64,000 bases of DNA from Acidobacteriota bacterium (GCA_026393675.1 JAPKZQ010000019.1:14333-78332); one strand, 5' to 3'. Numbered from the stretch's first letter, positions 34,823 to 54,941 are shown. Notes: a model not told the origin generated them from the sequence alone. A program made the numbers and translations.

Positions 34823-34924
34823 TGACGCCTGTCGGAAGCTCGCGAGGGCGTCGGTGGCTTGGAAGTCTGCCTTCGCCCTTCGGCGGACATCCGCCATAGC
34901 CCCTGGATCGCATCCGGGCGACGG

Positions 34925-34962
34925 AGGATGGTGCGGAAGGGGGGCTTCGGAACATCACACAG
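34925..34962 (-). repeat. tRNA-Leu 3'-end fragment (att-like relic A)
   Basis: TGGTGCGGAAGGGGGG (34929-34944) is identical to 54855-54870, the acceptor 3' strand plus T-stem of the intact tRNA-Leu. Degenerate similarity continues on both sides (agg upstream; cTTCGgAAC..CACAC downstream). Same orientation as the tRNA. Confidence 0.6.
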
Positions 34963-35004
34963 ATTCTAAAACTCGACACGGTGACACAAGGGCTCAGGTA
35001 ACTT

Positions 35005-35682
35005 ATGCAGGCGCCATTGAAGAGAACACCAGCCAATCGTAGGCGGCCGCTGAGGCGTACGGCAGGCCCCTCACGAACCCGCGCGCTCATCACGCTGACT
35101 CTCGTCCTCGTGGCCGTGCTCGGGGTATCGGCGCGGCAGCGTACGAGTGGGCAGGTTGTCGCCGGTACCGCCGTGGATGCGACGGGCGCCGTGCTGCCTC
35201 GCGCACAGGTCACGCTGACCACGACCTCGAACGCCGCGGTGCAGACCACGACCACCGACGCGGCCGGCACGTTTCGGTTCGAGGGTGTGGTGCCGGGTCG
35301 GTACGAGATCCGGGTCAGCTTCGAAGGATTCCAGCCGACCATCGCGCAAGTGACCGTTGGCTCTCGGGCGCCTTCAAAGGTTCGCATCATGCTGCCGCTG
35401 GCGAACGTCAAGCAGGAAGTCACGGTTAGCAATCAGGCGCGTGAGGTGAGCACGAGCGCCGCGACGAATTCCGATGCGGTCACCGTCGACAAGAACTTGC
35501 TCGAGAGCCTGCCGGTGTTCGATCAGGATGTGGTCGCGACGGTGTCGCGATTCCTTGATGCTGGCTCGCTTGGCAACGGTGGCGTCACCGTGGTGGTCAA
35601 CGGCATGGAAGTGAGCGCGCTCGTGTCATCGTTCCTGGCGCATAGCGGGCCGTGGCGCCCACAGGACTCGATTGAGCAGTAG
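35005..35682 (+). pseudogene. N-terminal fragment of a CarboxypepD_reg/TonB-receptor-like OM protein (truncated)
   Basis: VAGTAVDATGAVLPRAQVTLTT...TDAAGTFRFEGVVPGRYEIRVSFEGFQP is a CarboxypepD_reg domain. It is followed by the start of a plug-like region (LLESLPVFDQD...GGVTVVVNGMEV). The ORF then ends after 225 aa and overlaps the 3' end of the convergent M20 gene. Confidence 0.55.
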
Positions 35683-36975
35683 TGCTGCGCGCTTCGTGAT
35701 CGCCGCCATCTCTTCAAGGTCCGTGTATTCGCCCGGGGCGTGCTCCTGGGCGCCCAGCCCGCCGAGGCCATCGAGTCCCGAAAGCAGCGTGGCCACAAAC
35801 GAGATGTCGCCCGCGCCGCGCTTGGACGGATCGTGCGCGGTGATGGGGCCCGTGCCGAGATCGCGCGACACCTGATCGAGCGTCGCGAGCAGCGCGCGAT
35901 TGCCGTCGGTCGGCTCCATCGACGGCATGCCATCTTCGAACGTGATGCTCGCCGACGTCTTCGGCAGATTCGCCGCGACAATTGCCCGCATCTTTCCGCG
36001 GGCCCGCTCCAACTGCTCGCGCGACAGGAAGCGCATGTCGCCCTCGACGATCACCGAGCGGGGCACCACGTTGGTCTTGCCGGTCGCCGTGCCGGTGAAG
36101 GTTGCCGAGTCGTACTTGACCTCGGTGCCCCCGATGACCACGCTCGGGTTATAGGTGAGATACGGCTCCCGGAGTTCGGCGTGAAAAGCCTGGAGGATGC
36201 GCGCGGCTTCGAAGATCGCGCCGCTGCCGCGGTCATCGCCGAAAATCGTGGACGAGTGCCCCTGAGACCCTGCGACCTCGAGCCGCCACGAGCTGAATCC
36301 GCGGCGGCCCACGACCGCCGTTCCGGGTTCGTACCCCTCGAAGGCCAACGCGACGTCGCTGCGTTTCGCTGCCTCGACAAGCGCCGACCGGCTCGACTCG
36401 TACGGCCTGCCCGTGTCCTCCTCGTCGCCGGTGAGCACCACGATGACCTGGCGATCGGTGAGGCGCCCGGCAGCGTGAAGCGCACGAAGCGCTTCGACGA
36501 TGATGACGTTGCCGGACTTCATGTCGGACGAGCCGCTGCCATAGCCACGCCGGCCATCGCGTCGGAACGCCTCGCCCTGCAGCACGGTGTCGAGATGGCC
36601 AATCAGCAGAACCCGCGTACCCTTCGTTCCCCGGTGCTCCGCGACCAGATGGCCCGCACGCCCAACCTCCTTCTGGTCAACCCACGTCGTCTCGAAGCCG
36701 AGAGACGCCAGTTCCGCGGCGTACAATTCGCCAACCCGTTTCACACCCTCGTGATTCTCGGTGGCGCTCGGGATGTTGACGCAACGCGCGAGCAGGTCGA
36801 CGGCGGCTTCACGGCGCTGGTCGATAAACTTGAGAACCTGCTGCTCGGCCGACGTGAGTTCGCTGGCTGAGAGATGCACGCTCATCAACAGGCCGACGAA
36901 GACGAGGGAACGGCGGATGGTCACAACAACTCCTTTGCGGGTGTCTGGCGTACCGGACGCTCGCACAACATCCAT
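35626..36975 (-). CDS. M20-family metallopeptidase (carboxypeptidase G2/glutamate carboxypeptidase-like)
   Basis: LLIGHLDTV, SDMKSGNV, VLTGDEEDTG, and the dimerisation-domain pattern. N-terminal signal-like segment. Start is uncertain. Confidence 0.8.
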   Translation of the reverse strand: MDVVRASGTPDTRKGVVVTIRRSLVFVGLLMSVHLSASELTSAEQQVLKFIDQRREAAVDLLARCVNIPSATENHEGVKRVGELYAAELASLGFETTWVDQKEVGRAGHLVAEHRGTKGTRVLLIGHLDTVLQGEAFRRDGRRGYGSGSSDMKSGNVIIVEALRALHAAGRLTDRQVIVVLTGDEEDTGRPYESSRSALVEAAKRSDVALAFEGYEPGTAVVGRRGFSSWRLEVAGSQGHSSTIFGDDRGSGAIFEAARILQAFHAELREPYLTYNPSVVIGGTEVKYDSATFTGTATGKTNVVPRSVIVEGDMRFLSREQLERARGKMRAIVAANLPKTSASITFEDGMPSMEPTDGNRALLATLDQVSRDLGTGPITAHDPSKRGAGDISFVATLLSGLDGLGGLGAQEHAPGEYTDLEEMAAITKRAALLLNRVLWAPRPAMRQER

Positions 36976-37137
36976 CTCGAATCAGCTTCTCACAGTAGAA
37001 CGTCCACGTCAGCTCCGGTGAAGAAATCGCCTGACACGTGTCACCGAAACCCGACCGCGACGTCGCCCAACGGCATCACACCTGCGGCTGCAGATTCCCA
37101 CACGCGGAAATGCACCGGGTGCCACGCCGCCAGCAAA

Positions 37138-38217
37138 TCACCGGAGTTCGTACCAGACACCACGCCCGCTGCCGTGCTGGTTCAGGCTTCCACGATCGAC
37201 CAGCGCTCGGAAGTGCTGTTTCAGGGTGTTGCGACCTGCGCCTGTCAGGCGGATGGCCGCGCCCATCGTCACACGACCGTGCTCGCGTGCAACTTCCACG
37301 ATCCGCAACGAGAGTTCAGGCAGCGACGCCAGCACCAGTTTCTCGCGCTCGACCTTCTTCTCCAACCGTCGCACCTGTTCAGCCAGAGAGAACAAGAAGA
37401 ACTCCAGCCACGGCTGCCAGTTCGGGGCGTCGGTACGGATCGTCGCCTGGGTGAGCCGCAGGGCCAGGTAGTAGGCTTCCTTGTTGTGCTCGATCACGCT
37501 CTCCAGGGAGCTGTACGGGACATAGGCATAGCCCGCTTGCAGGAGCAGCAGCGTGGTGAGCACCCGGGAGAGCCGACCGTTGCCATCCTGAAACGGGTGG
37601 ATTTCAAGAAACACAACGACGCACAGGGCGATGATCAGCAGGGGATGCAGACGTCCTGCATCGCGTTCCTCCTGAACCCAGGTGACCATTTCTGTCATCA
37701 GCCGCGGCGTGTCAAAAGGCGTGGCGGTCTGGAACACGATGCCGATCTGGGCGCCGTTCTCGTCAAAGGCAGCAACGCTGTTGGCGTTCGTTTTGTAGTT
37801 GCCACGATGCCAAGTGTCCTTCTCGCTGTGGCGGAGCAGGATCTGGTGCAACTGCTTGATGTGGTTCTCAGTGACGGGAATGTCCTGCCACGAGCTGAAC
37901 ACCAGATCCATCAACTCGGCGTAACCGGCCACCTCCTGCTCGTCGCGGGTTGCGAAGGGCGTGATCAGCAGATTCGATAGGAGGCGCTCCACGTCCCGGT
38001 CGGAGAGCTTGCTCCCCTCGATCCGCGTGGATGAACCGATGCTCTCGATGGTGGCAACCCGGCGCAGGGCCGACAACCGATCGGGCGCAAGTGTGCCCAG
38101 AGCACGCCAAGCGCCCTTGAATTCGTCGATCCTGGCGATCAAGGCCAGAATCTCCTGCGTGATTTGGATGGTGTCAGACCGGATCACGAAACCAATATTA
38201 CACCCAATTACACCCAT
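37138..38217 (-). CDS. Fic/DOC family protein (class II, with N-terminal inhibitory motif) and a C-terminal wHTH
   Basis: Canonical Fic motif HPFQDGNGRLSR. N-terminal SSTRIEGS matches the (S/T)xxxE(G/N) alpha-inh motif. The C-terminal ...RNTLKQHFRALVDRGSL... is wHTH-like. Confidence 0.85.
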   Translation of the reverse strand: MGVIGCNIGFVIRSDTIQITQEILALIARIDEFKGAWRALGTLAPDRLSALRRVATIESIGSSTRIEGSKLSDRDVERLLSNLLITPFATRDEQEVAGYAELMDLVFSSWQDIPVTENHIKQLHQILLRHSEKDTWHRGNYKTNANSVAAFDENGAQIGIVFQTATPFDTPRLMTEMVTWVQEERDAGRLHPLLIIALCVVVFLEIHPFQDGNGRLSRVLTTLLLLQAGYAYVPYSSLESVIEHNKEAYYLALRLTQATIRTDAPNWQPWLEFFLFSLAEQVRRLEKKVEREKLVLASLPELSLRIVEVAREHGRVTMGAAIRLTGAGRNTLKQHFRALVDRGSLNQHGSGRGVWYELR

Positions 38218-38254
38218 TTAGGCCCGTATCCACAAAGACACCCAATTACACCCA
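38201..38254. repeat. 16-bp direct repeat x2 at the Fic gene 5' end
   Basis: CACCCAATTACACCCA occurs at 38201-38216 and 38239-38254, in an AT-richer stretch. Confidence 0.7.
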
Positions 38255-38354
38255 CTCGGCGTCCGTGATCCGTCCGTACCACACACTCCGGATTCACGCC
38301 GCTGCTCATGTCGGTGCCGAGCAGGGCCGCTGGGACACACACCGGCGCGGTCGC

Positions 38355-38639
38355 TCAGTCGTCGGACGGCAGAACGTAACGCTCTTTGGGGGTCAGATCC
38401 TTGGGCTGAACGAATCCGACTTGGCGCCTTCTTGCATCCGTTCTCAGAATCCAGGCGATGTCTTCCATCTCGCGAATGGATGCATGCTGCCGGCTGACGT
38501 GCTCGGTGCAGAAGGTAACGGAGAAGGTGATCCGGTTGTGGCCACGAACGGCTCGCGACGATGGGCGACGTTGCGCGTCGTCAGCGATGTCAGTCAGAAT
38601 GAGTCTCTGCCGGAACATCGGTGGACATGGCAACGACAA
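38355..38639 (-). pseudogene. 5'-replaced/truncated paralog of the small ORF at 43807-44133
   Basis: The C-terminal 62 aa (GHNRITF...KERYVLPSDD, nt about 38355-38543) differ at 4 positions from residues 47-108 of the 108-aa ORF. The N-terminal 32 aa are unrelated and lack the CxxC region. Confidence 0.5.
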
Positions 38640-38651
38640 CGCGAGGTATCC

Positions 38652-39704
38652 ATGATGAACAGGACGATCGGATATGCGGCGCAGAGCGCGACGACGCCGC
38701 TTGAATCATTGTCTTTCGAACGCCGCGAACCTGGATCGAGCGATGTGGAGATCGAGATTCAGTACTGCGGAGTCTGCCATTCAGACTTGCACACGGCGCG
38801 CAACGAGTGGATGAACACCGTCTATCCTGTGGTCCCTGGTCACGAAATCGTCGGCCGGGTCAGCCGCGTGGGCAGCGGCGTGACGCGCTTCGCGGCCGGC
38901 GATCTGGTGGGCGTGGGCTGCATGGTCGATTCCTGCGGCATCTGCTCGGACTGCATCGAGGGCCTGGAACAATACTGCCAGGGTGGCTTGACGCTCACCT
39001 ACAACAGCGCCGACAAGCACACCAGGACGATGACCTACGGAGGCTACTCGAAGCGCATTGTCGTCGACGAACGTTTCGTGTTGCGTGTTCCGGACACGTT
39101 GAGCCTTCCCGGCGTGGCACCGCTCCTCTGCGCGGGGATTACCACCTACTCACCCTTGCGCCACTGGGGAGTGGACAGCGGGAAGAAGGTCGGGATCGTC
39201 GGGCTCGGCGGGCTTGGTCACATGGGCCTGAAGTTCGGGCACGCGTTCGGAGCCCACGTCGTGCTGTTCACGACCTCTCCCGGCAAGGCGGCCGATGCAC
39301 GCCGGCTCGGTGCCGACGACGTCGTGATTTCAACGAACCCCGACGAGATGAAGCGCCACGCCGGCAGTTTGGACTTCATCCTGGACACGGTCGCTGCCCC
39401 GCATGACCTGGACGCGCTCACCGCGCTCCTCAAGCGTGACGCGACGCTGTGTCTGGTGGGCGCACCGGCTCACCCGCATCCGTCTCCGGCCGTCTTCAAC
39501 CTGATCTTCCGGCGACGGCAGATCGCGGGCTCGCTGATCGGCGGCATCCGCGAGACCCAGGAGATGCTCGACTTCTGCGCCGAACACGGCATGACATCGG
39601 ACGTCGAAGTGATCCCGATGCAGGACATCAACATCGCTTACGAACGCATACTCAAGAGCGACGTGAAATACCGTTTCGTGATCGACCTCGCGTCGTTGCG
39701 CTAG
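38652..39704 (+). CDS. zinc-dependent NAD(P) alcohol dehydrogenase (YahK/cinnamyl-ADH-like)
   Basis: GVCHSDLH, GHEIVG, structural-zinc Cys cluster CGICSDCIEGLEQYC, and GLGGLGH Rossmann motif. ATG 38652 was chosen (MMNRTIGYAA...). Confidence 0.85.
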   Translation: MMNRTIGYAAQSATTPLESLSFERREPGSSDVEIEIQYCGVCHSDLHTARNEWMNTVYPVVPGHEIVGRVSRVGSGVTRFAAGDLVGVGCMVDSCGICSDCIEGLEQYCQGGLTLTYNSADKHTRTMTYGGYSKRIVVDERFVLRVPDTLSLPGVAPLLCAGITTYSPLRHWGVDSGKKVGIVGLGGLGHMGLKFGHAFGAHVVLFTTSPGKAADARRLGADDVVISTNPDEMKRHAGSLDFILDTVAAPHDLDALTALLKRDATLCLVGAPAHPHPSPAVFNLIFRRRQIAGSLIGGIRETQEMLDFCAEHGMTSDVEVIPMQDINIAYERILKSDVKYRFVIDLASLR

Positions 39705-39967
39705 CGGGATCGAATCAGGGTGAAGCAACTCGACCGGGTGTTCCGAGCCGGTTCCGAGCTCGACGCGAGAGTAGCCGCGTGGCGAGCCCAGCGACGACGA
39801 CGGACGTTCAAGCCGCCGTCGCTGGAAACAAGGACGCAGTCGTCTTGCGGTTGAAGAAGTAGACCAGCCGCAACGCACCGCTGTTGCGGAGGCATCACCG
39901 AAGAGGAAAGCCGCACGTTCGCACTCCGCGCCGACCGCGAACAGCGCACCGTCTCCCAGCGCGTTGC

Positions 39968-40471
39968 CTACTGCTTGTCGTAGACCGCCACAGCGTTGAC
40001 GGTTTGTCCCTGGGCATTCGTGCCAGTGGCCGTGATGGTCATCGTCTTCCCATCGCTGGACACGACAGCGTTCTGAGTGATGGTGACCTTCCCACCCTTC
40101 TTGTAGATGTTTCTCGTCGTATTTGCGTCGACACGCGTGATAGCCACGACTTCGCCGTACGGGCTGTTGCCCGTGATGGGGTAGTCCTTCCCGTCGTAGT
40201 TCGCGCTGTATGCCCAGTGCTTCACTGTGTCGTCGGCAGCCACCGAATCAACCGAAACCTTGGCGCCTGCGCCCGCGGCCTCGACTGTGAAGGCGGCACT
40301 CTTTGATGCGGCTGCCGTGCCAGGACTGACCTTCGTCTTCGCGACGTTCAGCTTCCAGGTGCCAATATTTGTTGGACTGCTGGACTGAGCGAACGTCGTG
40401 CCTGCGAGCACGACAACCAACCCAAGTGCGACGACCGCGAAAAGACACGTCTGCCGGATTCTTGCCTGCAT
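39968..40471 (-). CDS. secreted beta-rich protein of unknown function
   Basis: Signal MQARIRQTCLFAVVALGLVVVLAGTTFAQ. GTWKLNVAKTK lipocalin-like start. No family assigned. Confidence 0.55.
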   Translation of the reverse strand: MQARIRQTCLFAVVALGLVVVLAGTTFAQSSSPTNIGTWKLNVAKTKVSPGTAAASKSAAFTVEAAGAGAKVSVDSVAADDTVKHWAYSANYDGKDYPITGNSPYGEVVAITRVDANTTRNIYKKGGKVTITQNAVVSSDGKTMTITATGTNAQGQTVNAVAVYDKQ

Positions 40472-40566
40472 GGATCCCTCTCTGTCTCTGGTGCCGAGGT
40501 TTATAGTGAGTTGTGACGGATGGGCGAGTCTACCCCAGTCTCAGCGTGTGAGCGGAGGAAATCGGA

Positions 40567-42354
40567 CTACTTCTCTTTCTTTAACGTCGCGATCCAGATA
40601 TCACCCTCGGTGCCGGTCTCCGTGTACGTAATCCACTTGTCGTCGCGCGACAGGCCGACGCTTCGGCCACCGACGTACCCGCCCACGGTAATGAGCTGGC
40701 GCCAGACCTGAGTGTCCGGATACACAATCCAGATGCCGCGACCGTCGCGGACGATCAGACGATGGCCGTCGCTCAGCCAGGCCATTGCCAGCCAGTTCGC
40801 GCTGCCCGGTTGCGTCACATACTGCCGCGAGGCCAGCGTGAGTACACCGAGGCGCATACCCGACGGGCCCTGGATGCCGCCGGCGAGGCGCGTGCCGTCG
40901 GGCGACCACGCCAGCGGCCAGAAGAAGTTCGTGGCATCGATCGGCGGCTGCAGTTCCAGCGTTCCGCCAGACTCGCCCGGACGCAGGATGTACCAGCCTC
41001 CTGGCGTACCCGCCTTCGGGAGTTCCGAGAACGCCACCCGGCCATCCCGCGCCCACGCCGGAATGCTGACAGCGATCCGCGGCGTCGGGATCAGCGTCAG
41101 CTCGGTGCTGTCGGGCCGAACGGTCCACATTTGATAGGACCCGGAGCGATCGGAGTAAAAGAGGATGCGCTGCCCATTACTCGACCACACCGGCGAGCGG
41201 TTGCGGAACGCGTCATCGGTGAGCCGGGTGTAGTGCGTGCCGTCGATTCTCGCGACGATCACGTCTTCCTGCGCGCCAATTTCCGTGAACACGACCGACT
41301 GAACGTCGGGCGACACCTCATGATCGCGAATCGTACGGGTGCCCTTGAGCACGGACACGGCGGGGCCGACGACCGCTTCGCGCGCCGGATCGAAAGCGAC
41401 CTTAAGCAGGGTCGAGCGCCAGTCGAGACTCGCATAGGCGAGCTTCGTGCCGTCGCGGGAGATCGAGTAGTAACCGCTCCAGTTCGACGGCGTCGTCAGC
41501 GGCTCGGCGGCGCCGCGCGTGCGTCCGCTCGCCTCGTCTATCGGCACGCGCCACAGGTTCATGGGGCCGCCGCGAGTGCTGGAGAAATACAGGAACGTTC
41601 CGTCCGGTGACCACGTCGGACTCCAGTCGACGGCGGGATCATCGGTGACGGACACCCCGCCGGTGGCCGCCTCCGAGCCGTCGGCGGCGACCGTCCAGAG
41701 GTCGCGCTGTCCGCCGGCGCGCAGTCCCCAATAGGCGATCCGCGTCCCATGCGGTGACCAGTTCGGCTGCATCGCGTCACCGACGCCGACGACGACGCGC
41801 CGGACTCTGGTCGCAACATCGACCGCCGAGAGCCCGTCGGCCCTGGTGGCGCGATCGGTCGGCGAAAAAAAGGTCCCGTGGCTGACCGCGATTTCCCGAC
41901 CGTCTGGCGACCACGCCGGGTGGTACCCGAAGTCGGTGATCCGCTTCACCGATTCACCTGTCGCGCTCATCACGAAGATACCGCCGGGGTCCCGCTCGGA
42001 CCGAAACGCGATTCGCTCGCCCTCGGGAGAGAAAGCCGGCTGCGAGTCGTTGAAGCGAGAATCCGCAGTCAGCCCGACGGCATTGCGACCGCCCACGTGC
42101 ACGCTGTAGATGTGAGAACTACCCGACGCGCCAGCCGCATAGACGACGGTGCGTCCATCCGGCGAGATCGTCGGCTGCGTCTCGACGCCGGGGCTGTCGG
42201 TGACCTGCTGAAACGAGACGACCGTTGGCCCGCCGGACGAGCGTCCCGCCGGCGCGACGTATCGTCCTGCGACAAACGCCGCGCCCGCAAGCAGCAGCCC
42301 CGCCGCCGCGAAGGCGATGACGGGCGCGCGAGCGCGACGAGGCGCTGGCGCCAT
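40567..42354 (-). CDS. membrane-anchored PD40/TolB-type beta-propeller repeat protein
   Basis: TM anchor APVIAFAAAGLLLAGAAFVAG. Repeated PD40 motifs (P.ISPDGR.VVY, PAFSPEGERIAF, PAWSPDGREIA, PNWSPHGTRIAY, PTWSPDGTFLYF, PVWSSNGQRILF, LAWSPDGTRLA). Start chosen at 42354; the ORF-track extension to 42807 is unsupported. Confidence 0.75.
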   Translation of the reverse strand: MAPAPRRARAPVIAFAAAGLLLAGAAFVAGRYVAPAGRSSGGPTVVSFQQVTDSPGVETQPTISPDGRTVVYAAGASGSSHIYSVHVGGRNAVGLTADSRFNDSQPAFSPEGERIAFRSERDPGGIFVMSATGESVKRITDFGYHPAWSPDGREIAVSHGTFFSPTDRATRADGLSAVDVATRVRRVVVGVGDAMQPNWSPHGTRIAYWGLRAGGQRDLWTVAADGSEAATGGVSVTDDPAVDWSPTWSPDGTFLYFSSTRGGPMNLWRVPIDEASGRTRGAAEPLTTPSNWSGYYSISRDGTKLAYASLDWRSTLLKVAFDPAREAVVGPAVSVLKGTRTIRDHEVSPDVQSVVFTEIGAQEDVIVARIDGTHYTRLTDDAFRNRSPVWSSNGQRILFYSDRSGSYQMWTVRPDSTELTLIPTPRIAVSIPAWARDGRVAFSELPKAGTPGGWYILRPGESGGTLELQPPIDATNFFWPLAWSPDGTRLAGGIQGPSGMRLGVLTLASRQYVTQPGSANWLAMAWLSDGHRLIVRDGRGIWIVYPDTQVWRQLITVGGYVGGRSVGLSRDDKWITYTETGTEGDIWIATLKKEK

Positions 42355-42570
42355 CGAGGCCGGCGACCGCCCGCTCGGCGGACGATCAGACGCGCCACGA
42401 GCAGGACCGTCAGCAACAGAACGGTCGCAAAGGTCGCGACGACCAACGTCTCGATCCGCAACGCGACGAAGGATCGGCCGCTCGCTGCTGTGCTTCTGGC
42501 CGCTCGCGGCGGATTGTGGTAGTGCTATCGTGATATACATGTGGTAGCGTTTTATGTATACTACGAGAGC

Positions 42571-43701: not shown

Positions 43702-43806
43702 GCGACACGGCATCGCTCCAGCCGGATCGATGGCCCGATGTGACGGTGGCGTCGAGACGCTGGAAAGGCCCGTCCATCTCGACTCTGATTCAGCCGGCGC
43801 AGTCGT

Positions 43807-44133: not shown

Positions 44134-44446
44134 GTCCTCCTACAGGTGCGTCATGCAACACCTCCTTTTTGCGAGCATGTGACGACGATGCCATCGTCGA
44201 ACGACGCGAGTCAAGTGGTGGGGGCGTGGTGTGGGGCCGAGATGCTCACCGCCCCGATCGTGGCGGAAGCGACGCGGGATCTTGGCTCACGGCTCCATGC
44301 CGGCAGCCGTGAGCGCAGCAAGGCCGCGGCCCAACGGCCCGGACCCGGCGGCGCTTGAGAGCTGTTCAGCGCCGCGGGTCAGGCCCGAAGGTGACCTTGC
44401 CGGAGGAGGGCCCCTCGCGCTCCCACGGTCCGCGCGGGTTGGGTCA

Positions 44447-47407: not shown

Positions 47408-47416
47408 GGCGGCGCC

Positions 47417-50400
47417 GTGAATATCTCCGAAACGTTCATCCGGCGTCCGATCGCCACCAGCCTGCTGATGGCTGCGATCGCCCTGTTCGGCGTCGTGGCG
47501 TACCGAGAGTTGCCGATCAGCGACTTGCCGACCGTAGAGTATCCAACGATCAGCGTGCAGGCCAGCCTGCCCGGCGGCGACCCGGTCACGATGGCGGCGG
47601 CGGTCGCCAGCCCGCTCGAAAGACAGTTCACGACGATCGCGGGCATCGACGAGATGACCTCGCGTAGTGGCACGGGCAGTAGCTCCGTCACGCTGACCTT
47701 CGACCTGAACCGCGACATCGAGAGCGCGGTTACCGACGTGCAGACGGCCATCGCTGCAGCGATGCCCCTGCTGCCGCCCACATTGACGGCGCCACCTTCG
47801 TTCCGCAAGCAGAACCCGGCCGATCAGCCGATCCTGCAGATCAACCTGACCTCCGATACCCTCGACATGACGACGGTCGACGAGTACGCGGAAGACGTCC
47901 TGGCCCCGCGCATTTCCACGGTGACCGGAGTCGCCCAGGTCAACGTGCAGGGCGCCGCGAAGTATGCCGTGCGGGTCCAGGTGGATCCCGACAGGCTGCA
48001 GGCGCAGAAGATAGGCATCAACGAAATCGACACCGCCCTGCAGAATTGGAATGTGACGCAACCCACCGGACAGCTGTTCGGGCCACTGGCCACTTACAGC
48101 ATCGCGGCCAAGGGGCAGCTCAACAACGCCGACGAATTCGGGCGAATTGTCGTCTCGTACCGCAACGGCCGGGCCGTACGGCTGAATCAGGTCGCCAACG
48201 TGATCGACAGCGTCCAGAGCGTCACGCAGCGGGCGTGGTACATCACGAAGGACGCCTATCAGCGCTCCATCACCCTCGAGGTGTTGAAACAGCCTGGCAC
48301 CAACGTGATCGAGGTGGCCGACGCGGTTCGTGCCGTGCTGCCGGAGCTCCAGAGCCAGTTGCCGCCCTCGGTGCACATCGTGATCCGCCAGGATCGTTCG
48401 GTGAACATCCGGGCGGCATTCAGGGACATCCGCGTGACGATGCTCATCACGCTCATTCTGGTGGTCGGCGTCATCTATCTGTTCCTTCACAACGCCTCGG
48501 CGACGCTCATCCCGGCGCTGGCGCTGCCGTTCTCGATTCTGGGCACCTTCGCCGTCATGCAGATGCTGCACTACAGCCTCGACAATCTGTCGATGATGGC
48601 GCTCATCCTTTCGGTCGGATTCGTCGTGGACGATGCGATTGTGATGCTCGAGAACGCCGTCCGCCACATGGAGGCCGGCGAGTCTCCGTTGCACGCGGCG
48701 CTATCGGGCTCCAGGGAGATTGCCTTCACGATCGTGACGATGACCGTCTCGCTGGCGGCGGTGTTCATCCCGCTCCTGTTCATGGGCGGCATCCTCGGCC
48801 GGCTCTTCCGCGAGTTTGCGGTGACCATCACGAGCACGGTGCTCATCTCCGGCATTGTCTCGATCACGCTCACGCCGATGCTCTGCAGCCGGTTCCTGCG
48901 CGTGGTCCTGACCAAACGCGGGTTCGCGGGGTTCATGGATCGGTGGTTCGATCGGCTGCGCTCGGCGTACGGACGGAGCCTGAGGCTGGTCCTCCGGCAC
49001 CGGCTCGCGATGCTCGGCGTGTTCGTGGCCGTGCTCGGCGCCAGCGTAGAAATGTTCGGGATTGTCCCGAAGGGATTCATCCCTGACACGGACAACGACT
49101 CGTTGAGCGTCATGGTCCAGGCGGCGCAGGGCACCTCGTTCTACGAACAGGTCGGATACGTCCGGCAGATCGCCGACGTGATCCGGCCGAACCCGTTTGT
49201 CGTTGCGCAGATGGCCAACGCGGGCGGCGGCGGCCCCGGCGGCGGGTTCAACATCCAATTGACGCCGCGCGCCACCCGGAACATGACGGCGCAGCAGATC
49301 GCGCAGCAGCTCCGGGGACCCCTCGGCCGCTTCCCGGGGTTCCGCGCCTTCGTCAACGTGCCGGCCTCGCTCCAGATTGGCGGCTTCCGGGGCAACAGCA
49401 GCTTCAACGTCAACGTCCAGAGCCTCAACTACGACGAGCTCTACGAGTGGGCACCGCGACTGGAGCAGGCCATCGGCGAACTATCCTCGATCCAGGACGT
49501 GTCGGACAACATGGAGATGAAGAGTCCGCGCGTGAACATGACCATCGATCGGGACAAGGCGGCAGCCATCGACCTGAACGCGACGCAGATCACGCAGACG
49601 CTCTCCGACGGCTTCGGCCAGAAGCTGGTCGGCACCATCTATGGCGATCGGACCCAGTACCGCGTGCTGCTGGAGCTGGATCCGAAATATCAGGAACGGC
49701 CCGAGTCGCTGAGGAAAATCTCGTTCAGGACCCCGCAGGGCGCGCTGGTCCCGCTCGAAGAGGTGATCAACATCAAGGAAGACGTAGGGCCGCAGAGCGT
49801 CAATCACTTCGGTCAGCTGCCGGCCGTGAATATCTCGTTCTCGCTGAAGCCGGGCGTGTCGCTGGGCACCGCCATCGACCAGATCAACCAAGTCTCCCGC
49901 CAGGTGCTGCCGGCCACGGTGACGACGAGCTTCCAGGGGTCGGCCAAGGTGTTTCAGTCGTCGCTGGCCAATCTCAACCTCCTGTTCTTCATCGCGATCG
50001 GCGTGGTGTACATCGTCCTCGGCATGCTCTACGAGAGCTATATCCACCCGATCACGATTCTCTCCGGCCTCCCGTCGGCGGCCCTCGGCGGCCTGCTGAC
50101 ACTGTGGCTGTTCGGCAACGAGCTGAACATCTACTCGTATGTGGGTCTCATCCTGCTCATCGGTCTGGTGATGAAGAACGCGATCATGCAGATCGACTTC
50201 GCGCTCGAGGCCGAGCGCCAGCAGGAGATGACGCCGACCGACGCCATCTACCAGGGCTGCATCGTCCGATTCCGCCCGATCATGATGACGACCATGGCCA
50301 CGCTGCTCGGCGCGCTGCCGATCGCGCTTGGATTCGGCGCCGGTGGCGAGGCGCGGCGGCCGCTGGGGATTGCGGTGGTCGGCGGCCTGATCGTCTCGCA

Positions 50401-50503
50401 GGTCATCACGCTCTATCTCACACCGGTCGTGTATACCTACATGGCCACCTGGGTCAAAACGAGCAGAATTCAGGCGACCAGCGCCTCCGCCGCGCGTGGC
50501 TAA
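47417..50503 (+). CDS. RND (HAE1, AcrB/MdtB-like) inner-membrane efflux permease 1
   Basis: N-terminus NISETFIRRPIATSLLMAAIALFG. 1028 aa. Conserved SVGFVVDDAIVMLEN and MKNAIMQIDFALE motifs. Confidence 0.9.
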   Translation: MNISETFIRRPIATSLLMAAIALFGVVAYRELPISDLPTVEYPTISVQASLPGGDPVTMAAAVASPLERQFTTIAGIDEMTSRSGTGSSSVTLTFDLNRDIESAVTDVQTAIAAAMPLLPPTLTAPPSFRKQNPADQPILQINLTSDTLDMTTVDEYAEDVLAPRISTVTGVAQVNVQGAAKYAVRVQVDPDRLQAQKIGINEIDTALQNWNVTQPTGQLFGPLATYSIAAKGQLNNADEFGRIVVSYRNGRAVRLNQVANVIDSVQSVTQRAWYITKDAYQRSITLEVLKQPGTNVIEVADAVRAVLPELQSQLPPSVHIVIRQDRSVNIRAAFRDIRVTMLITLILVVGVIYLFLHNASATLIPALALPFSILGTFAVMQMLHYSLDNLSMMALILSVGFVVDDAIVMLENAVRHMEAGESPLHAALSGSREIAFTIVTMTVSLAAVFIPLLFMGGILGRLFREFAVTITSTVLISGIVSITLTPMLCSRFLRVVLTKRGFAGFMDRWFDRLRSAYGRSLRLVLRHRLAMLGVFVAVLGASVEMFGIVPKGFIPDTDNDSLSVMVQAAQGTSFYEQVGYVRQIADVIRPNPFVVAQMANAGGGGPGGGFNIQLTPRATRNMTAQQIAQQLRGPLGRFPGFRAFVNVPASLQIGGFRGNSSFNVNVQSLNYDELYEWAPRLEQAIGELSSIQDVSDNMEMKSPRVNMTIDRDKAAAIDLNATQITQTLSDGFGQKLVGTIYGDRTQYRVLLELDPKYQERPESLRKISFRTPQGALVPLEEVINIKEDVGPQSVNHFGQLPAVNISFSLKPGVSLGTAIDQINQVSRQVLPATVTTSFQGSAKVFQSSLANLNLLFFIAIGVVYIVLGMLYESYIHPITILSGLPSAALGGLLTLWLFGNELNIYSYVGLILLIGLVMKNAIMQIDFALEAERQQEMTPTDAIYQGCIVRFRPIMMTTMATLLGALPIALGFGAGGEARRPLGIAVVGGLIVSQVITLYLTPVVYTYMATWVKTSRIQATSASAARG

Positions 50504-50511
50504 GGGGATTC

Positions 50512-53500
50512 GTGAACATCTCTGAAGGATTCATCAAACGGCCCATCGCGACCAGTCTGCTCATGGCCGCGATCGCCCTGTTCGGCCTGGTGGCGTATCG
50601 GGCGTTGCCGGTCAGCGACCTGCCCAACGTCGACTTCCCGACGCTGCTCGTCACGGCGCAGTTGCCCGGCGCCAATCCGGAGACGATGGGCGCGTCGGTG
50701 GCGACGCCGCTCGAAAACCAGTTCTCGACCATCTCCGGGCTCGAGCAGATGACCTCGGTGAACTCGCTCGGCTCGACGCAGATCACGCTCGAATTCGCGC
50801 TGGACCGGAGCCTGGACGGCGCGGCGGTCGATGTGCAGGGCGCCATCACGCAGGCCTCGCGCCTGCTCCCGCAGGGCATGCCGACGCCGCCGGTCTTCAC
50901 CAAGGTCAATCCGGCCGACCAGCCCATCCTGTATCTGGTCGTCACCTCGACGACGCTCCCGCCGTGGACCCTCGACGAATACGCCGAAACGCGGATCGCG
51001 CAGCGGATCTCGCAGGTCAGCGGCGTCGCGCAGGTGCAGGTGCTCGGCGGCCAGAAGTACGCCATGCACGCGCAGCTCGATCCCTACGCGCTGGCGGCAC
51101 GCCAGATCGGGATCAACGAGGTCGAAGCGGCGCTTCGGAATTGGAACGTCAACGTCCCGACCGGATCGATCATCGGCCCGCACCAGGTGTTCACGCTGCA
51201 GGCGAGCGGACAGCTGATGAACGCCGACCAGTACCGGAACCAGATTATCTCGTACCGGAACAACTCGCCCGTCCGGCTCGAGCAGCTCGGCGCGATCGTC
51301 GACGGGGTCGAGGACCAGCGCACGGGGTCGTGGTACTACACGTCCGACCTCAAGCAAAGCGCCATCACGCTGGGGATTCAGCGCCAGCCCGGGACCAATA
51401 CGATTGCGGTCTCAGACGCCGTCAAAGAGCTCTTGCCGCGGCTGCGCGCCGAACTGCCCGCCAGCGTTCACATGAACATGCTGTACGACCGCGCCAACAC
51501 GATCCGGGAGTCGTATCGCGACGTGCAGTTCACGATGGGGCTGACCCTGGCGCTGGTGATCCTGGTCATCTTCGTGTTCCTGCGGAACGTCCGGGCGACG
51601 GCGATTCCGAGCCTCGCGCTGCCGTTTTCGATCATCGGCACCTTCTCGGTGATGTACTTCCTGAACTACAGCCTCGACAACCTGTCGATGATGGCGCTCA
51701 TCCTCTCGGTCGGGTTCGTCGTGGACGATGCGATCGTGATGCTGGAGAACATCTATCGGCACGTCGAGATGGGCCAGGAGCCGCTCGAGGCGTCGTTTGT
51801 CGGAGCCCGCGAAATCGGCTTCACGATCGTGTCGATGACGCTCTCGCTGGCGGCCGTCTTCATTCCCGTGCTCTTCATGGGCGGGGTGCTCGGTCGGCTG
51901 TTCCGCGAGTTCTCGGTCACCATCTGCGTCGCGATTCTCATCTCCGGCGTGGTGTCGGTGACCTTGACGCCGATGCTCTGCAGCCGTTTCCTGAAGAAGC
52001 CGCGCACGCGCGGCGAGGACGGGGGACGCCCGCGTTTCTATGAGGTGACCGAGCGCGCGTTCAAGTCGTGGCTCAATGGCTACGACCGGACGCTGCAGAT
52101 CGTCATGCGGCATCGTGCGGCGACCATGGTCGCCTTCGTCGTGATGCTCGTGTCGACAGGCATCCTCTTCGTCGTCGTGCCCAAGGGCTTCATTCCAGAC
52201 CAGGACGCCTCCCAGATCGCCGTCGTCACGGAGGCCGCGCAAGGCACGTCCTATGGCAAGCTCGTCGAGTACCAGGACCGCGTCGCCGACATCATCAGGC
52301 GTGACCCCAATGTCGAGGGGCTGGTGTCGACAATCGGCGGCAGCGCCTCGATGGCGCTGGGCGGGCCGAACCTCGGGCAGATCGTGGTGACGCTGAAGCC
52401 GCATAACGAGCGGAGGCTCTCGGTCGGCGAGCTCATCGAGAAGCTGCGACCGCAGGTCGATCAGGTCGTCGGCATGCACGTCTTCATGCAGAATCCGCCG
52501 ACCATTCGCATCGGCGCCCAGGTCAGCAAGAGCCTGTACCAATTCTCGATGCAGTCGCCCGACAAGAACGCGCTGTACGCCGCCGCCCGCACGCTGCGAT
52601 CGGCGCTGGCGGCGCTTCCCGGCCTCCAGGACGTGACGAGCGACCTTCAGGTGAGCAGCCCGCAGGTCAGCGTCGAGATCGATCGCGACAAGGCCGCGGC
52701 GCTCGGCGTGACCGCCAACCAGATCGAAAACGCGTTCTACGACGCGTACGGTCCGCGCTGGGTCTCGACGATCTACGGGTCGGTCAACGAGTACAAGGTC
52801 CTGCTCGAGCTGGCGCCCGAGTTCCAGCAGGACCCGAGCGCCCTCTCGCTGCTCTACTTCAAGGGCGGTGGGGTGAACAGTCCGGTGGTCCCGCTCGACA
52901 CGCTGGCGACACTGACGCAGCAGGTCGGCCCGCAGACCGTGAACCACTACGGTCAGTTGCCGGCCGTCACCGTGTCGTTCGGGATCGCGCCGGGCGCGTC
53001 GCTCGGCGACGTGCTGAGCCGGGTGCGGCAGGTGACGCTGGACACCGTGCCCGACGGCGTCACGGGTCAGTTCCAAGGTGCGGCCGCCGCGTTCCAGGGT
53101 GCGCTCTCGAACCTCGCCGTGCTGCTCGTCATCGCCGTGCTCGTCGTGTATATCGTGCTCGGCATCCTCTACGAGAGCTACATCCACCCGCTGACGATTC
53201 TGTCAGGCCTGCCCTCAGCTGCCTTCGGCGCCCTGCTCACCCTGATCCTCTTCCACATGGATCTGAACATCTACGCCTTTGTCGGCATGATCATGCTGAT
53301 CGGCATCGTCGAAAAGAATGCCATCATGCAGATCGATTTCGCGCTGGAAGCCGAGCGGAACGGGCTGTCGTCGGAGGAGGCGATCTATCGAGGGTGCCTG
53401 ATCCGGTTCCGCCCGATCATGATGACCACGATGGCCGCGGCTCTGGGCGCGGTGCCGATCGCGGTGGGATACGGGGCGGGCGGAGAAGCCCGGCGCCCGC

Positions 53501-53652
53501 TCGGCCTGGTCGTCGTCGGCGGGTTGGCGTTCTCGCAGATCGTGACGCTCTATCTCACGCCGGTCTTCTTCACCTACATGGCGCAGTTGCAGACCTGGCT
53601 GAGGCGCGGTCGGACGGTTCCGCAGGCGCAGTCCGTCGTGGTGGGGGAATAG
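50512..53652 (+). CDS. RND (HAE1, AcrB/MdtC-like) inner-membrane efflux permease 2
   Basis: GTG 50512 follows AAGGGG. N-terminus NISEGFIKRPIATSLLMAAIALFG. Same motif set as permease 1. The ORF-track start at 49447 is an out-of-context extension over the upstream gene. Confidence 0.9.
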   Translation: MNISEGFIKRPIATSLLMAAIALFGLVAYRALPVSDLPNVDFPTLLVTAQLPGANPETMGASVATPLENQFSTISGLEQMTSVNSLGSTQITLEFALDRSLDGAAVDVQGAITQASRLLPQGMPTPPVFTKVNPADQPILYLVVTSTTLPPWTLDEYAETRIAQRISQVSGVAQVQVLGGQKYAMHAQLDPYALAARQIGINEVEAALRNWNVNVPTGSIIGPHQVFTLQASGQLMNADQYRNQIISYRNNSPVRLEQLGAIVDGVEDQRTGSWYYTSDLKQSAITLGIQRQPGTNTIAVSDAVKELLPRLRAELPASVHMNMLYDRANTIRESYRDVQFTMGLTLALVILVIFVFLRNVRATAIPSLALPFSIIGTFSVMYFLNYSLDNLSMMALILSVGFVVDDAIVMLENIYRHVEMGQEPLEASFVGAREIGFTIVSMTLSLAAVFIPVLFMGGVLGRLFREFSVTICVAILISGVVSVTLTPMLCSRFLKKPRTRGEDGGRPRFYEVTERAFKSWLNGYDRTLQIVMRHRAATMVAFVVMLVSTGILFVVVPKGFIPDQDASQIAVVTEAAQGTSYGKLVEYQDRVADIIRRDPNVEGLVSTIGGSASMALGGPNLGQIVVTLKPHNERRLSVGELIEKLRPQVDQVVGMHVFMQNPPTIRIGAQVSKSLYQFSMQSPDKNALYAAARTLRSALAALPGLQDVTSDLQVSSPQVSVEIDRDKAAALGVTANQIENAFYDAYGPRWVSTIYGSVNEYKVLLELAPEFQQDPSALSLLYFKGGGVNSPVVPLDTLATLTQQVGPQTVNHYGQLPAVTVSFGIAPGASLGDVLSRVRQVTLDTVPDGVTGQFQGAAAAFQGALSNLAVLLVIAVLVVYIVLGILYESYIHPLTILSGLPSAAFGALLTLILFHMDLNIYAFVGMIMLIGIVEKNAIMQIDFALEAERNGLSSEEAIYRGCLIRFRPIMMTTMAAALGAVPIAVGYGAGGEARRPLGLVVVGGLAFSQIVTLYLTPVFFTYMAQLQTWLRRGRTVPQAQSVVVGE

Positions 53653-53775
53653 GCAGGCCTGCGTCAGCCTCGGTGGCGCGCTGGTGTCGCGTACCGCCGA
53701 ATCCGCTGCCGGTGGCAGCCAGTCGCTCGAGCGCAACGCTGGCATCGGAATCGGCAACCCCAAAGACCTCCGCCG

Positions 53776-54519
53776 TCACGTCGCGACGGCGGCGAGGGTG
53801 CCCGCCTTGAAGCAGGTTTTGTCCCCCCAGCTTCTCTCCACGAACGAAACGATGCCGGCGGCGATCTCTTCGAGCCCGCTGCGGTCCCGGTTGTACACGG
53901 CGTGATAATGCGTCAAGTCACGGACCGACGCGCGCAGGTAGCTTTCGATGAATGCGTCGCGCTTCTGGTGGTACTCCCGCAGCATCTCGGCGGCCTCCTT
54001 CTCGGAGATCTTCAGGCGCTGAGCCGTCGAGGAGACGCAGAACGCGTCGCTCGCATCGAGACGGAAGTGATAGCAGTTCTTGAGGTGCCGGGTCAGGATG
54101 GCGCCTCCGCGGCCGACGATGATCGCGTTGCCAGCCCCGGCGATCTGCACCAGGTGCCACGCCAGGCGGCGGAAGGCCTCGTCGTGCGTGACGTGACCAG
54201 GGAACACGAAACCCAGGGAGTCGTCGGCGCGCCTGGACGACCCCAGGTCCTCGAGGAACTCCATGGAGAGGTGCTCGGCTTGGCTCACCCGCTCAAGGAG
54301 CGCCTTGTCGTAGATGATCCAGGGTTCCTCGCAGGCGGCGTCGAGCAGTTCCTTGAGCCGCAGGGCCAGAGGAAACGCCTCGCAGCCGTACTTGCGCGAG
54401 ATGGTGATGGTCGCGCCCGGCGGCGGCGCTTCGGCGTCCTTGCGTTTGTCCTTGACGGAGATCCACGCGGAAAGGCGCCGCTCGACGCTTGGGAGGAGGG
54501 AATCTTGGGACTTGGTCAT
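53776..54519 (-). CDS. cytidylate-kinase-like (AAA_28/CMK-like) family protein
   Basis: ITISRKYGCEA resembles the ITISRxYGSGG start of CMK-like proteins. GGAGGA RBS before ATG 54519. Confidence 0.5.
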   Translation of the reverse strand: MTKSQDSLLPSVERRLSAWISVKDKRKDAEAPPPGATITISRKYGCEAFPLALRLKELLDAACEEPWIIYDKALLERVSQAEHLSMEFLEDLGSSRRADDSLGFVFPGHVTHDEAFRRLAWHLVQIAGAGNAIIVGRGGAILTRHLKNCYHFRLDASDAFCVSSTAQRLKISEKEAAEMLREYHQKRDAFIESYLRASVRDLTHYHAVYNRDRSGLEEIAAGIVSFVERSWGDKTCFKAGTLAAVAT

Positions 54520-54854
54520 GGTGTCCTCCGTCCGCCGCCCGTGTAGACCGTTGCTGAGCAAAATGTAGCACGACGGCGGACATGGGGAGGTCAGGGGTTT
54601 GAGGGGCAAATCTTGGCACGTGGGACGGCTGAGGGCTCTTCACGTTCCTGCGAACCTCTCCGGGGCTAATCGGCTCGGCTACCCCCGAATTGGCCGGAAC
54701 GAGACGGAGGATTGGCTAGGCGATGGTCCGCCTCCGTCGCGGTCCAGGTGGCACGCTACTTCCCGCCACTACGGCGGGACAGCCTTCGCGACTAGCTGGC
54801 TTGCCCAGCCGAAGCTCGACCGAGGAGTATGGCAAGCCGAGGTCGAGCGAAGGC

Positions 54855-54941
54855 TGGTGCGGAAGGGGGGATTCGAACCCCCACACTCTTGCGAGTGCCA
54901 GCCCCTCAAGCTGGTGCGTCTGCCAGTTCCGCCACTTCCGC
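54855..54941 (-). tRNA. tRNA-Leu (anticodon GAG), CCA encoded
   Basis: Manual cloverleaf: acceptor GCGGAAG/CTTCCGC, anticodon stem CCAGC/GCTGG with loop TTGAGGG, a long variable arm, T-arm GGGGG-TTCGAAT-CCCCC, and 3' ACCA. Confidence 0.9.

Follow-up and report, generated by a model that had tools for sequence, protein, structure and literature searches.

The DNA analysed here, a stretch of 64,000 nucleotides from an Acidobacteriota bacterium (GCA_026393675.1, JAPKZQ010000019.1:14333-78332; referred to as the window), contains only one tRNA gene according to ARAGORN, which codes for tRNA-Leu(GAG) and is located next to secG. Two fragments of this tRNA recur on its 3' side in the same orientation, the first (fragment B) at a spacing of 9.6 kb from the intact gene and the second (fragment A) 10.3 kb further on. 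The DNA between the three copies carries a CMK-like gene, an MdtABC-like efflux operon and a series of small gene modules, and an island of toxin-antitoxin (TA) genes follows outside of fragment A (Table 1). A preliminary description of the window had taken the three copies for relic att sites of stacked genomic islands, inserted by an integrase that targets the 3' ends of tRNA genes.

Table 1. Features of the window on the 3' side of tRNA-Leu(GAG), listed from the tRNA outward. MFP, membrane-fusion protein; ORF, open reading frame; REP, repetitive extragenic palindrome.
Feature	Position	Strand	Basis or remark
secG	54960-55322		Pfam (SecG); directly upstream of the tRNA gene, follows tpiA, pgk and gap on the same strand
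tRNA-Leu(GAG), intact, CCA encoded	54855-54941	-	ARAGORN; Rfam RF00005, 53.4 bits
Structured element of ~85 nt directly 3' of the tRNA	54769-54854	-	Outer stem CAGCCTTC/GAAGGCTG plus inner hairpin
CMK-like gene (PF13189)	53776-54519	-	Pfam; first gene after the tRNA
MdtABC-like efflux operon	45836-53652	+	Pfam (HlyD_D23, ACR_tran)
RND2	50500-53652	+	Efflux operon
RND1	47417-50503	+	Efflux operon
MFP	45836-47407	+	Longest ORF; likely ATG at 46034
Element-side arm (putative P arm of attR)	45311-45439	-	~130 nt; tandem motif GTGTGCGAATATGTGCGAAT at 45400-45419
Fragment B (tRNA nt 28-68)	45270-45310	-	41/41 identical to 54874-54914
REP-like GC-rich unit at the fragment B break, in place of tRNA nt 69-87	45227-45269	-	Motif GCGCGAAGGTGGAC
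vapBC-2	44482-45134	+	vapB 44482-44709, vapC 44706-45134; PIN domain; 94% aa identity to vapC-1
Small Cys ORF	43807-44133	-	Module of 34961-44481
DUF4143 ATPase	42541-43701	+	Pfam
PD40 protein	40567-42807	-	Pfam
167-aa ORF	39968-40471	-	No Pfam or NCBIfam match
ADH	38265-39704	+	Pfam
Fic	37138-38217	-	Pfam
M20 peptidase	35626-36975	-	Pfam
CarboxypepD_reg protein	35005-35682	+	Pfam
Fragment A (tRNA nt ~52-87 plus ~14 nt of flank)	34916-34960	-	blastn 46 nt, 80%, E=1.3e-5
REP-like unit after fragment A	34862-34915	-	GGGCGAAGGCAGAC at 34865-34878; resembles tRNA-downstream repeats of L015 and L019
TA island outside fragment A	31910-34822	+	Pfam and NCBIfam
PIN_3 toxin with RHH antitoxin	34155-34822	+	TA island
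vapBC-1	33413-34107	+	TA island
AbiEi	32716-33333	+	TA island
AbiEii	31910-32719	+	TA island

Fragment B extends from the anticodon stem through half of the T-loop, and its match to the tRNA has zero expected occurrences in shuffled sequences and a blastn E-value of 1.7e-12. Fragment A is exact only over nt 72-87 of the tRNA (34929-34944, identical at 16 of 16 positions to 54855-54870), with nt 52-71 present in degenerate form and a similarity that reaches ~7-14 nt past the tRNA 3' end. The expected count of this 16-mer is 0.11 even if two mismatches are allowed, and the local alignment score of fragment A is 22-26, compared to a maximum of 15 among shuffles. Both fragments are intergenic, fragment A being placed between the end of a PIN gene at 34822 and the start of the next gene at 35005. 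Local alignment over the intergenic DNA from 31.8 to 54.9 kb revealed no further tRNA relics clearly above shuffles; a marginal match at 40512-40550 was dismissed, as it falls into the conserved upstream region of the 167-aa ORF module. Rfam recognises only the intact tRNA in the window, and neither the fragments nor the hairpin downstream of the tRNA fit any of its families. These data bear out the preliminary description with respect to the position of the tRNA gene, on which ARAGORN and Rfam agree, the full identity of fragment B, the identity of fragment A over 16 nt with weaker similarity around it, and the common orientation of all copies on the 3' side of the tRNA. That the similarity is due to chance, or to a dispersed repeat with no relation to the tRNA, appears extremely improbable: the short exact match of fragment A and the G+C-rich REP-like units nearby would be in line with it, but the shuffling and BLAST statistics, the lack of opposite-strand matches in 66 related loci and the conserved arm next to fragment B speak against it.

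For comparison, four sets of loci were assembled, consisting of 80 loci from species-representative genomes (L007-L086), 80 loci from JGI metagenomes (L087-L166), the contexts of CMK homologues (L167-L178) and those of MFP homologues (L179-L181). The relatives identified via SecG are without exception metagenome-assembled genomes (MAGs) of Vicinamibacterales/Acidobacteriota. The gene order gap-pgk-tpiA-secG-tRNA-Leu is conserved across ~160 Vicinamibacterales loci with a variable downstream side, and the linkage of secG to the tRNA is kept in nearly all relatives. Seven genes on the upstream side, namely gap, pgk, tpiA, secG and those for Kdo transferase, LpxK and lipid A acyltransferase, are kept in nearly every locus, whereas no downstream synteny is conserved among ~75 species, and the clustering of 564 downstream ORFs yielded no cluster present in more than three genomes. 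Fragments of the tRNA were counted in the 66 loci that contain the intact gene and at least 3 kb of downstream sequence. Extra 3' fragments in the same orientation as the tRNA, one to three per locus, occur in 15 of them, and opposite-strand fragments in none. The fragments of these relatives are spaced by 0.15-7 kb, mostly by 0.9-7 kb, they form stacks of two or three in L014, L023 and L084, and 12 of 18 begin at nt 27-29 of the tRNA, as does fragment B. This pattern is the signature by which Islander recognises islands in tRNA genes, with an identity block of the class that begins at the anticodon loop and reaches the CCA end. In L049, the gene for a tyrosine integrase (PF00589) starts 12 nt past the tRNA, and the island ends in a fragment of nt 29-87; homologues of this integrase also adjoin the tRNA in L018, L041, L122 and L158.

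The arm flanking fragment B connects the window to these islands. It is 76-94% identical to arms preceding the displaced fragments in L010, L014 (two copies), L105, L132, L168, L173 and L179, all of which are characterised by a tandem GTGTGCGAA motif. A MAFFT alignment places the tandem motif GTGTGCGAAtaTGTGCGAAT ~135 nt upstream of the core and shows it at corresponding columns of L045 and L062; L084 and the integrase-bearing island of L049 contain a variant, GTGTGCAAC. The motif is unique to the arm within the window, and its tandem copies are candidates for arm-type binding sites of an integrase. The genes adjoining the arm vary between loci (Ser/Thr kinase-PAS, HigBA, Fic, cupin, PD40, MFP), and the combination of a constant arm and core with differing neighbours indicates that arm and core form the fixed end of a family with variable cargo. 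The boundary of fragment B at nt 28 is the same as in the complete fragments of relatives, which comprise nt 28-87. In L179, which is 95% identical over the MFP gene, the same arm is followed by a complete core (nt 30-87) and by a further core 1.2 kb on, which implies that fragment B was formerly complete as well. In the variable arm of the tRNA, fragment B matches the window's own tRNA, and the L179 core differs with compensating changes. This would fit a host-derived origin of the part to the right of the crossover, although the tRNA of L179 is absent from its contig. The crossover itself may be placed in the anticodon loop by breakpoints at nt ~34-44: in L168 the arm continues into nt 28-40 and then into unrelated DNA, the second core of L179 begins at ~nt 35, and secG of L018 and L019 is adjoined by a 5' fragment that ends at nt 42-44, with the intact tRNA in distal position. 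Fragment B is best explained as the truncated displaced 3' copy of the tRNA and core of an attR, which together with the arm forms a far-end site; this attR has retained arm and crossover region and lost nt 69-87, and the attL, i.e., the tRNA, is intact.

Considered as a whole, it is probable that tRNA-Leu(GAG) of the Vicinamibacterales has been a recurrent target of integrative elements moved by tyrosine integrases, that arm and fragment B are the attR relic of such an element, and that the remainder is a mosaic of modules without an integrase. The tRNA would thereby have served as integration target (attB, now the attL side). The attP of the main element family would consist of a copy of tRNA nt 28-87 (the 3'-terminal ~60 nt), in whose anticodon loop the crossover would take place, and of an arm of ~130 nt with the tandem GTGTGCGAA motifs. 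A Campbell-type insertion would regenerate the tRNA and leave the arm, followed by the displaced 3' copy, at the island's far end. Such a far-end attR would be represented by fragment B and 45311-45439; it may later have lost nt 69-87 and become fused to the REP-like unit before vapBC-2. Fragment A may stem from an element with a T-loop-type site or be the 3' part that fragment B is missing from its core. Around the relics and in the intervals between them, the DNA would be an accretion mosaic of TA pairs, Fic, DUF4143 ATPase, PD40 protein, 167-aa ORF, CMK-like gene and efflux operon, in which repeated accretion and decay would have resulted in integrase-less units equivalent to cis-mobilizable elements (CIMEs). 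Because the window contains no integrase, any further movement would need one supplied in trans. Integrase-mediated insertion at tRNA-Leu, as proposed in the preliminary description, thus continues to be the best explanation, given the co-oriented fragments in 15 of 66 loci, the arm shared with relatives and the integrases adjoining the tRNA in five of them. The identification of the fragments as relic att sites of islands stands; the way in which the DNA had been partitioned into elements does not.

Beyond nt 68, which lies midway in the T-loop, fragment B runs on as CTTCCGACGCCGAAGCTCGAAGAGCGGAG, which had been described as a degenerate acceptor strand. This appears doubtful, since CGAAGCTCGAAGAGCGGAG is a 19/19 match to REP-like units preceding vapC (at its stop codon) in L019 and L014, and the sequence is probably better read as a REP-like unit at a deletion or insertion junction, even if the six bases CTTCCG after fragment B would still be compatible with the earlier assignment. 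G+C-rich hairpin units of the REP-like type (GGCGAAGGCGGAC..., CCTTCGA...TCGAAGG) cluster near tRNA copies in general: they are present in the window at 34862-34915, 45227-45269 and ~20900-21070, in L014 at 18.3-18.7 kb and in L015 at 2.6-3.0 kb, and form tandem arrays of ~60-95 nt per unit in relatives. A 65-nt unit at 21002-21066 of the window is 90% identical to units from the L014 islands.

Fragment A is best explained as a second att relic, of the type extending from the T-arm to the tRNA 3' end, and does not contain the crossover region of the main family. The REP-like unit following it resembles the repeats downstream of the tRNA in relatives and supports its origin from a real tRNA end with flank. 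Two histories fit: fragment A may be a relic in its own right, left by an element using a T-loop/3'-end site, or represent the 3' part now absent from the core of fragment B. In the latter case, fragments B and A would be the halves of one displaced core (arm, nt 28-87 and flank), split in the T-loop by a later insertion of 10.3 kb (34961-45269), possibly via a T-loop-targeting integrase with an attP mimicking the T-arm. The two fragments are indeed complementary, B breaking off at nt 68, halfway through the T-loop, and A being exact over nt 72-87, L179 possesses a complete core at the position of fragment B, and the unit following fragment A is a REP unit of the native type. However, a duplication of the identity block is not recognisable on the side of fragment B, the inserted block is itself a mosaic without an integrase, and an independent deletion of the 3' end of fragment B would explain its truncation equally well, so that a split core seems a rather doubtful, if conceivable, history.

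The modules between the fragments recur in relatives in a different arrangement. Homologues adjoin tRNA-Leu copies in L008, L014, L019, L044, L090, L092, L093, L099, L105, L121 and L132, in an order that differs from that of the window and in an orientation relative to the tRNA that is always the same. The vapBC genes directly follow the tRNA in L015 and L019 and the third (last) fragment in L014. The small Cys ORF directly follows the tRNA in L099 and L105, where it is located ahead of vapBC, the reverse of the window. The DUF4143 ATPase gene directly follows the tRNA in L093 and a fragment in L090, and PD40 genes are found in L105, L121 and L168, ADH in L044, and genes related to Fic in L018, L032 and L109. 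The 167-aa ORF forms a single-gene unit of 0.9-1 kb between tRNA copies in L008, L014 and L174 and is present in tandem in L019 and L092. It is the most recurrent cargo observed (L008, L014, L019, L092, L168, L169, L173, L174), and its unit often has its own hairpin arm (GGAGTGACGA...TCGTCACTCC) ahead of the tRNA core and is sometimes duplicated in tandem. Duplications also occur within the window. The vapBC genes are present twice in direct orientation (33413-34088 and 44441-45115; 91% nt identity, 94% aa identity for VapC), once in the TA island outside of fragment A and once adjoining fragment B, which had been missed in the preliminary description. A direct repeat of 202 nt (38342-38543 and 43794-43995) shows 89% identity; its copy at 38.3 kb duplicates, in truncated form, the 3' part of the small Cys-rich ORF and falls within the over-long ADH ORF, ahead of the sequence for the ADH domain.

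Similarity values bear on the age of this shuffling. L015 contains the succession tRNA, vapCB, PIN_3 TA genes, and the window contains fragment A, PIN_3 TA genes, vapCB-1, i.e., the swapped order, at 90-93% nt identity (vapBC 93%, PIN_3 TA genes 90%), compared to 76% for pgk and tpiA of the same pair. The DUF4143 genes of L090 and L093 are 88-89% identical to that of the window, compared to 76-77% for tpiA, and the non-coding arm is 85-89.5% identical to those of L014 and L132, whose tpiA genes are only 74% identical to that of the window. Altogether, TA modules, DUF4143 modules and the arm are 85-93% identical between genomes with 74-80% identity in tpiA and pgk. Modules more similar than housekeeping genes must have been exchanged after the genomes diverged, and the region is consequently not "old and fixed", as had been stated; even the closest relatives differ in downstream content.

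These data also bear on the former proposal, in which 45.31-54.85 and 34.96-45.26 kb are discrete elements, stacked and each inserted as a whole into the tRNA 3' end, leaving one att relic each, and old and fixed since then. The gene content on which it was based was recovered as described (M20 peptidase, Fic, ADH, PD40 protein, DUF4143 ATPase, PIN/VapC, MFP with two RND pumps, CMK-like gene), the tRNA shares its orientation with fragments B and A on its 3' side, and stacks of fragments exist in L014, L023 and L084. Moreover, the relatives do not share these 20 kb in the same place, which leaves an insertional origin standing. Nevertheless, two elements are too simple a partition: the genes of the fragment A-proximal segment correspond to at least seven independent modules in relatives, the CMK gene and the efflux operon of the other segment are unlinked elsewhere, with CMK distal to the islands in five relatives, and, for the most part, neither segment has been encountered as an intact unit with the same ends, although its parts recur separately. 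Together with the greater similarity of modules and arm than of housekeeping genes between genomes, this makes the two-element version unlikely.

The tRNA-proximal side of the window is more difficult to understand. The ~85-nt element behind the tRNA is predicted by RNAalifold to form 22 base pairs, seven of them with compensatory changes, from an alignment of ten genomes; it lacks a T-run, is not contained in Rfam, and has homologues in L019, L024, L074, L088, L091, L097, L123, L140 and L167. It may be either a native trailer or terminator-like flank of the tRNA, or the P' side of an element. In L088 and L097 it stands behind the displaced fragment and not behind the intact tRNA, as expected of a native flank. 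The CMK-like gene is located beyond tRNA-Leu islands in five relatives (L167, L168, L169, L173 and L174). L167 shows the order tRNA, 9.7 kb of other DNA, hairpin, CMK; L168 PD40, arm with partial core, SCP2, CMK; L169 tRNA, homologue of the 167-aa ORF, CMK, adenosine deaminase, Wzy_C; L173 tRNA, island, arm with core, two small ORFs, CMK; and L174 167-aa ORF, core nt 28-87, CMK. Downstream of CMK, these relatives share backbone genes (Peptidase_S15/M61/MFS, A_deaminase, AFOR), and the Wzy_C protein of L169 is 73% identical in amino acid sequence to that encoded at 25059-26435 of the window. An assembly artefact at the tRNA-CMK-RND2 junction was considered and rejected, because the tRNA-hairpin-CMK-RND2 junction is 100% identical over 53400-54903 in four independent Logan contigs (L175-L178).

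Between the tRNA and fragment B, the efflux operon may be either cargo or a block that was captured. It is 88-95% identical in L179-L181, among which only L179 has kept arm and core upstream of MFP; L180 and L181 present it with other neighbours, in ordinary, unrelated contexts. In L180, M20 (175-1467; 87% aa identity to the window) and MFP (10001-11353) have the same orientation and a similar spacing (~8.5-9 kb) as in the window (35626-36975 and 45836-47407). The interval is wholly different, containing a second RND system and a fucose isomerase gene in L180 and the module mosaic with fragment B in the window.

It may therefore be asked whether the tRNA site of the window is now unoccupied, with tRNA, hairpin and CMK forming a native junction and the arm, fragments and modules having been moved beyond CMK and the operon through rearrangement, through renewed integration at a secondary site or through exchange of a large block by homologous recombination. 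The five relatives in which CMK follows islands, core or hairpin and is then succeeded by the shared backbone would agree with this, as would the Wzy_C gene after CMK and A_deaminase in L169 and the linkage of M20 and efflux operon in L180. Conversely, in Campbell geometry the arm goes with the DNA between core and tRNA, so that the efflux operon falls within an element, the order of an arm with 5' core first and a 3' core later is opposite to the outcome of a secondary-site insertion, and L179 retains the succession MFP, arm, core. On balance, an unoccupied site seems improbable. With the operon inside an element, either that element may have captured the hairpin-CMK flank together with the operon, or a rearrangement may have parted the array from the tRNA.

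Several results weigh against the preferred reading of a recurrent target. The hairpin and CMK are distal to the islands in five relatives, and a single insertion between tRNA and fragment B fails to account for this unless gene capture or rearrangement is assumed; likewise, the link between efflux operon and M20 peptidase in L180 exists in a context without any tRNA signature. Fragment A is short and lacks the conserved arm, its analogues in relatives are weak (L086 nt 66-87, L153 nt 70-87, L011 nt 49-87), and no integrases were found near these short fragments of the T-loop type. As already noted in the preliminary description, no integrase is encoded in the 64-kb window, as judged from Pfam searches with nearly all long ORFs called by a GC3 filter, which also revealed no other recombinase or transposase; a tblastn search of the whole window with the L049 integrase, aimed also at decayed remnants, gave only noise. 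Most islands of the relatives are devoid of an integrase as well, and with none in the window and few in relatives, the connection between arm and integrase is circumstantial. Neither G+C content nor skew shows an anomaly over 34.9-54.9 kb. Finally, the compared genomes are MAGs at species level or further apart, supplemented by short metagenome contigs, and an empty site in a near-identical strain was not found by exact-protein look-ups with TpiA, CMK and VapC-2, which returned only contigs of up to 2.2 kb for TpiA and CMK and zero matches for VapC-2. The closest informative relatives are L099 (91% nt identity over secG-tRNA), L179 (95% over MFP) and L174 (90% aa identity in CMK).

The most far-reaching reading compatible with these data would be a cassette-like system at the tRNA-Leu(GAG) locus of the Vicinamibacterales. 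It would comprise dozens of different modules without an integrase, 0.9-6 kb in length and with one to four genes, each ending in a site of ~190 nt (the 130-nt arm with tandem GTGTGCGAA plus a 60-nt copy of the tRNA 3' part), which would be inserted directionally at the tRNA or at an earlier copy by a tyrosine integrase acting in trans from a minority of genomes or elements. Such arrays would grow and be shuffled like integron arrays, anchored on the tRNA gene, and the window would represent a decayed one. At present, this extension is put forward as a tentative possibility.

A true integron origin was considered separately, prompted by an intI-like gene in L171. Directly upstream of the CMK homologue, L171 (7502-8353) and L172 (449-1300) encode only the N-terminal half of an integron-integrase-like protein (TIGR02249, 4e-36). 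This truncated gene diverges from several HigBA and BrnT genes in a row, an arrangement resembling a decayed chromosomal integron. The modules of the window might accordingly belong to an integrase-less integron cassette array (CALIN), shuffled by an integron integrase, with the tRNA fragments being incidental; their small size and richness in TA genes, in addition to the intI-like gene beside CMK, would be compatible with this. However, the window contains no intI and has mixed gene orientations, no attC-like sites were noticed by inspection, which revealed only tRNA-derived repeats and REP-like units and did not include a dedicated attC search, and the module ends in relatives are marked by tRNA cores rather than attC. 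The integron interpretation is therefore rejected for the window as very unlikely.

Some further features of the region were noted in passing. 5' fragments of the tRNA (nt 1-42/44) are present near secG in L018 (10423-10466), L019 (10483-10524) and L109 (1620-1661). The intact tRNA follows 1.6-9.5 kb beyond in L018 and L019, the L109 contig stops before any second copy, and Fic or copies of the 167-aa ORF lie beyond the 5' fragments. These loci give the impression of elements by which the tRNA's 5' half is duplicated, an unusual geometry. On the upstream side of the tRNA, a gene of the fumarylacetoacetate hydrolase (FAH) family (55530-56384, plus strand) lies between tpiA and secG on the opposite strand. 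A homologue was detected only in L105 and L134 among the compared loci; tpiA and secG are adjacent in many other relatives and separated by an intervening stretch in some others. A second variable, defence-like block of lower G+C content (0.58-0.63) covers 8128-19396 of the window and codes for an HTH-SNF2 helicase-NOV_C protein, AbiEii, a DUF1156 protein and a DUF499 ATPase. On the 3' side of the tRNA, the variable DNA may thus reach far past 31.8 kb.

Displaced tRNA fragments are well known as boundaries of genomic islands. The Islander approach to islands in tRNA genes requires an intact tRNA gene, a displaced fragment and an integrase (Hudson, Lau and Williams, 2015; PMC4383910), and the sublocation classes within tRNA genes established by Williams (2002), as summarised in bioRxiv 10.1101/2020.11.02.365908, include the anticodon loop. 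The window resembles such islands in the intact tRNA gene and the co-oriented fragments on its 3' side that mark island ends, in the location of both fragments off conserved protein domains, and in spacings of 9.6 and 10.3 kb, within the range of 2-200 kb. Complete cores, as in relatives, begin in the anticodon stem-loop and reach CCA, the second relic belongs to the T-loop/3'-end type, and an integrase gene adjoins the tRNA in some relatives. It differs in that its segments lack an integrase and would be filtered out, in the truncation of fragment B, whose identity block starts at nt 28 as in the anticodon-loop class and stops at nt 68, short of the tRNA 3' end, and in a content of separately shuffled modules rather than one island per fragment. 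Lacking an integrase and with one att site truncated, the segments of the window are called relics and not still-mobile members. Phage structural or conjugation genes are absent from the Pfam matches in 31.9-54.6 kb, which sets the region apart from prophages and integrative and conjugative elements (ICEs).

The CIMEs, as in streptococcal CIME/ICE accretions, are also among the closest parallels; they have kept their att sites, have lost the genes for integration and transfer, and occur in tandem at tRNA 3' ends (Pavlovic 2004 and Bellanger 2011, as reviewed in Guedon et al., 2017; PMC5704250); accretion by insertion of new arrivals at an att site may lead to gene capture and cis-mobilisation (PMC5704250). 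The window shares with them the decayed state, the absence of mobility genes and the tandem arrangement at a tRNA 3' end, and its att sites are retained in part, with attL intact and attR shortened by nt 69-87. It differs in that no helper ICE or integrative and mobilizable element is visible, in the size of the units in relatives (often 0.9-6 kb with 1-4 genes) and in its host, from an uncultured lineage of Acidobacteriota; any mobilisation would be putative. Single conserved small-RNA genes also act as hotspots in Dehalococcoides (ssrA; PMC3146451) and Klebsiella (Asn-tDNA; PMC4891358), where direct repeats of the gene's 3' end separate tandem islands with variable cargo. The use of one conserved small-RNA gene as lineage-wide hotspot, the tandem islands and the variable cargo are common to all three cases, and differences are apparent in the mostly integrase-less units described here and in their cargo of mainly TA or defence-like and single genes. 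The ssrA and Asn-tDNA islands reportedly carry their own integrase in general. With integron cassettes, the units have in common that they are small, promoter-poor modules, often TA pairs, with recombination sites at their ends, directional insertion at one site and a shuffled order; they differ in a site made of an arm and a tRNA 3' copy instead of attC, in a tRNA gene instead of attI as target, in the lack of intI in the window and in their mixed orientations.

The process described here, tRNA-gene islands with tandem accretion, is known as such and appears in a lineage for which limited literature searches returned no description of mobile elements. The secG-tRNA-Leu(GAG) locus can be regarded as a lineage-wide integration hotspot in the Vicinamibacterales, an abundant and almost uncultured soil group, whose genomes exchange toxin-antitoxin, Fic, ATPase and efflux genes as small modules. 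The conserved arm and core could help to map such islands in MAGs, including those without an integrase which are discarded by Islander-type tools, and trans-mobilised mini-cassettes, if they exist, would be a useful addition to the concepts of CIMEs and integrons.

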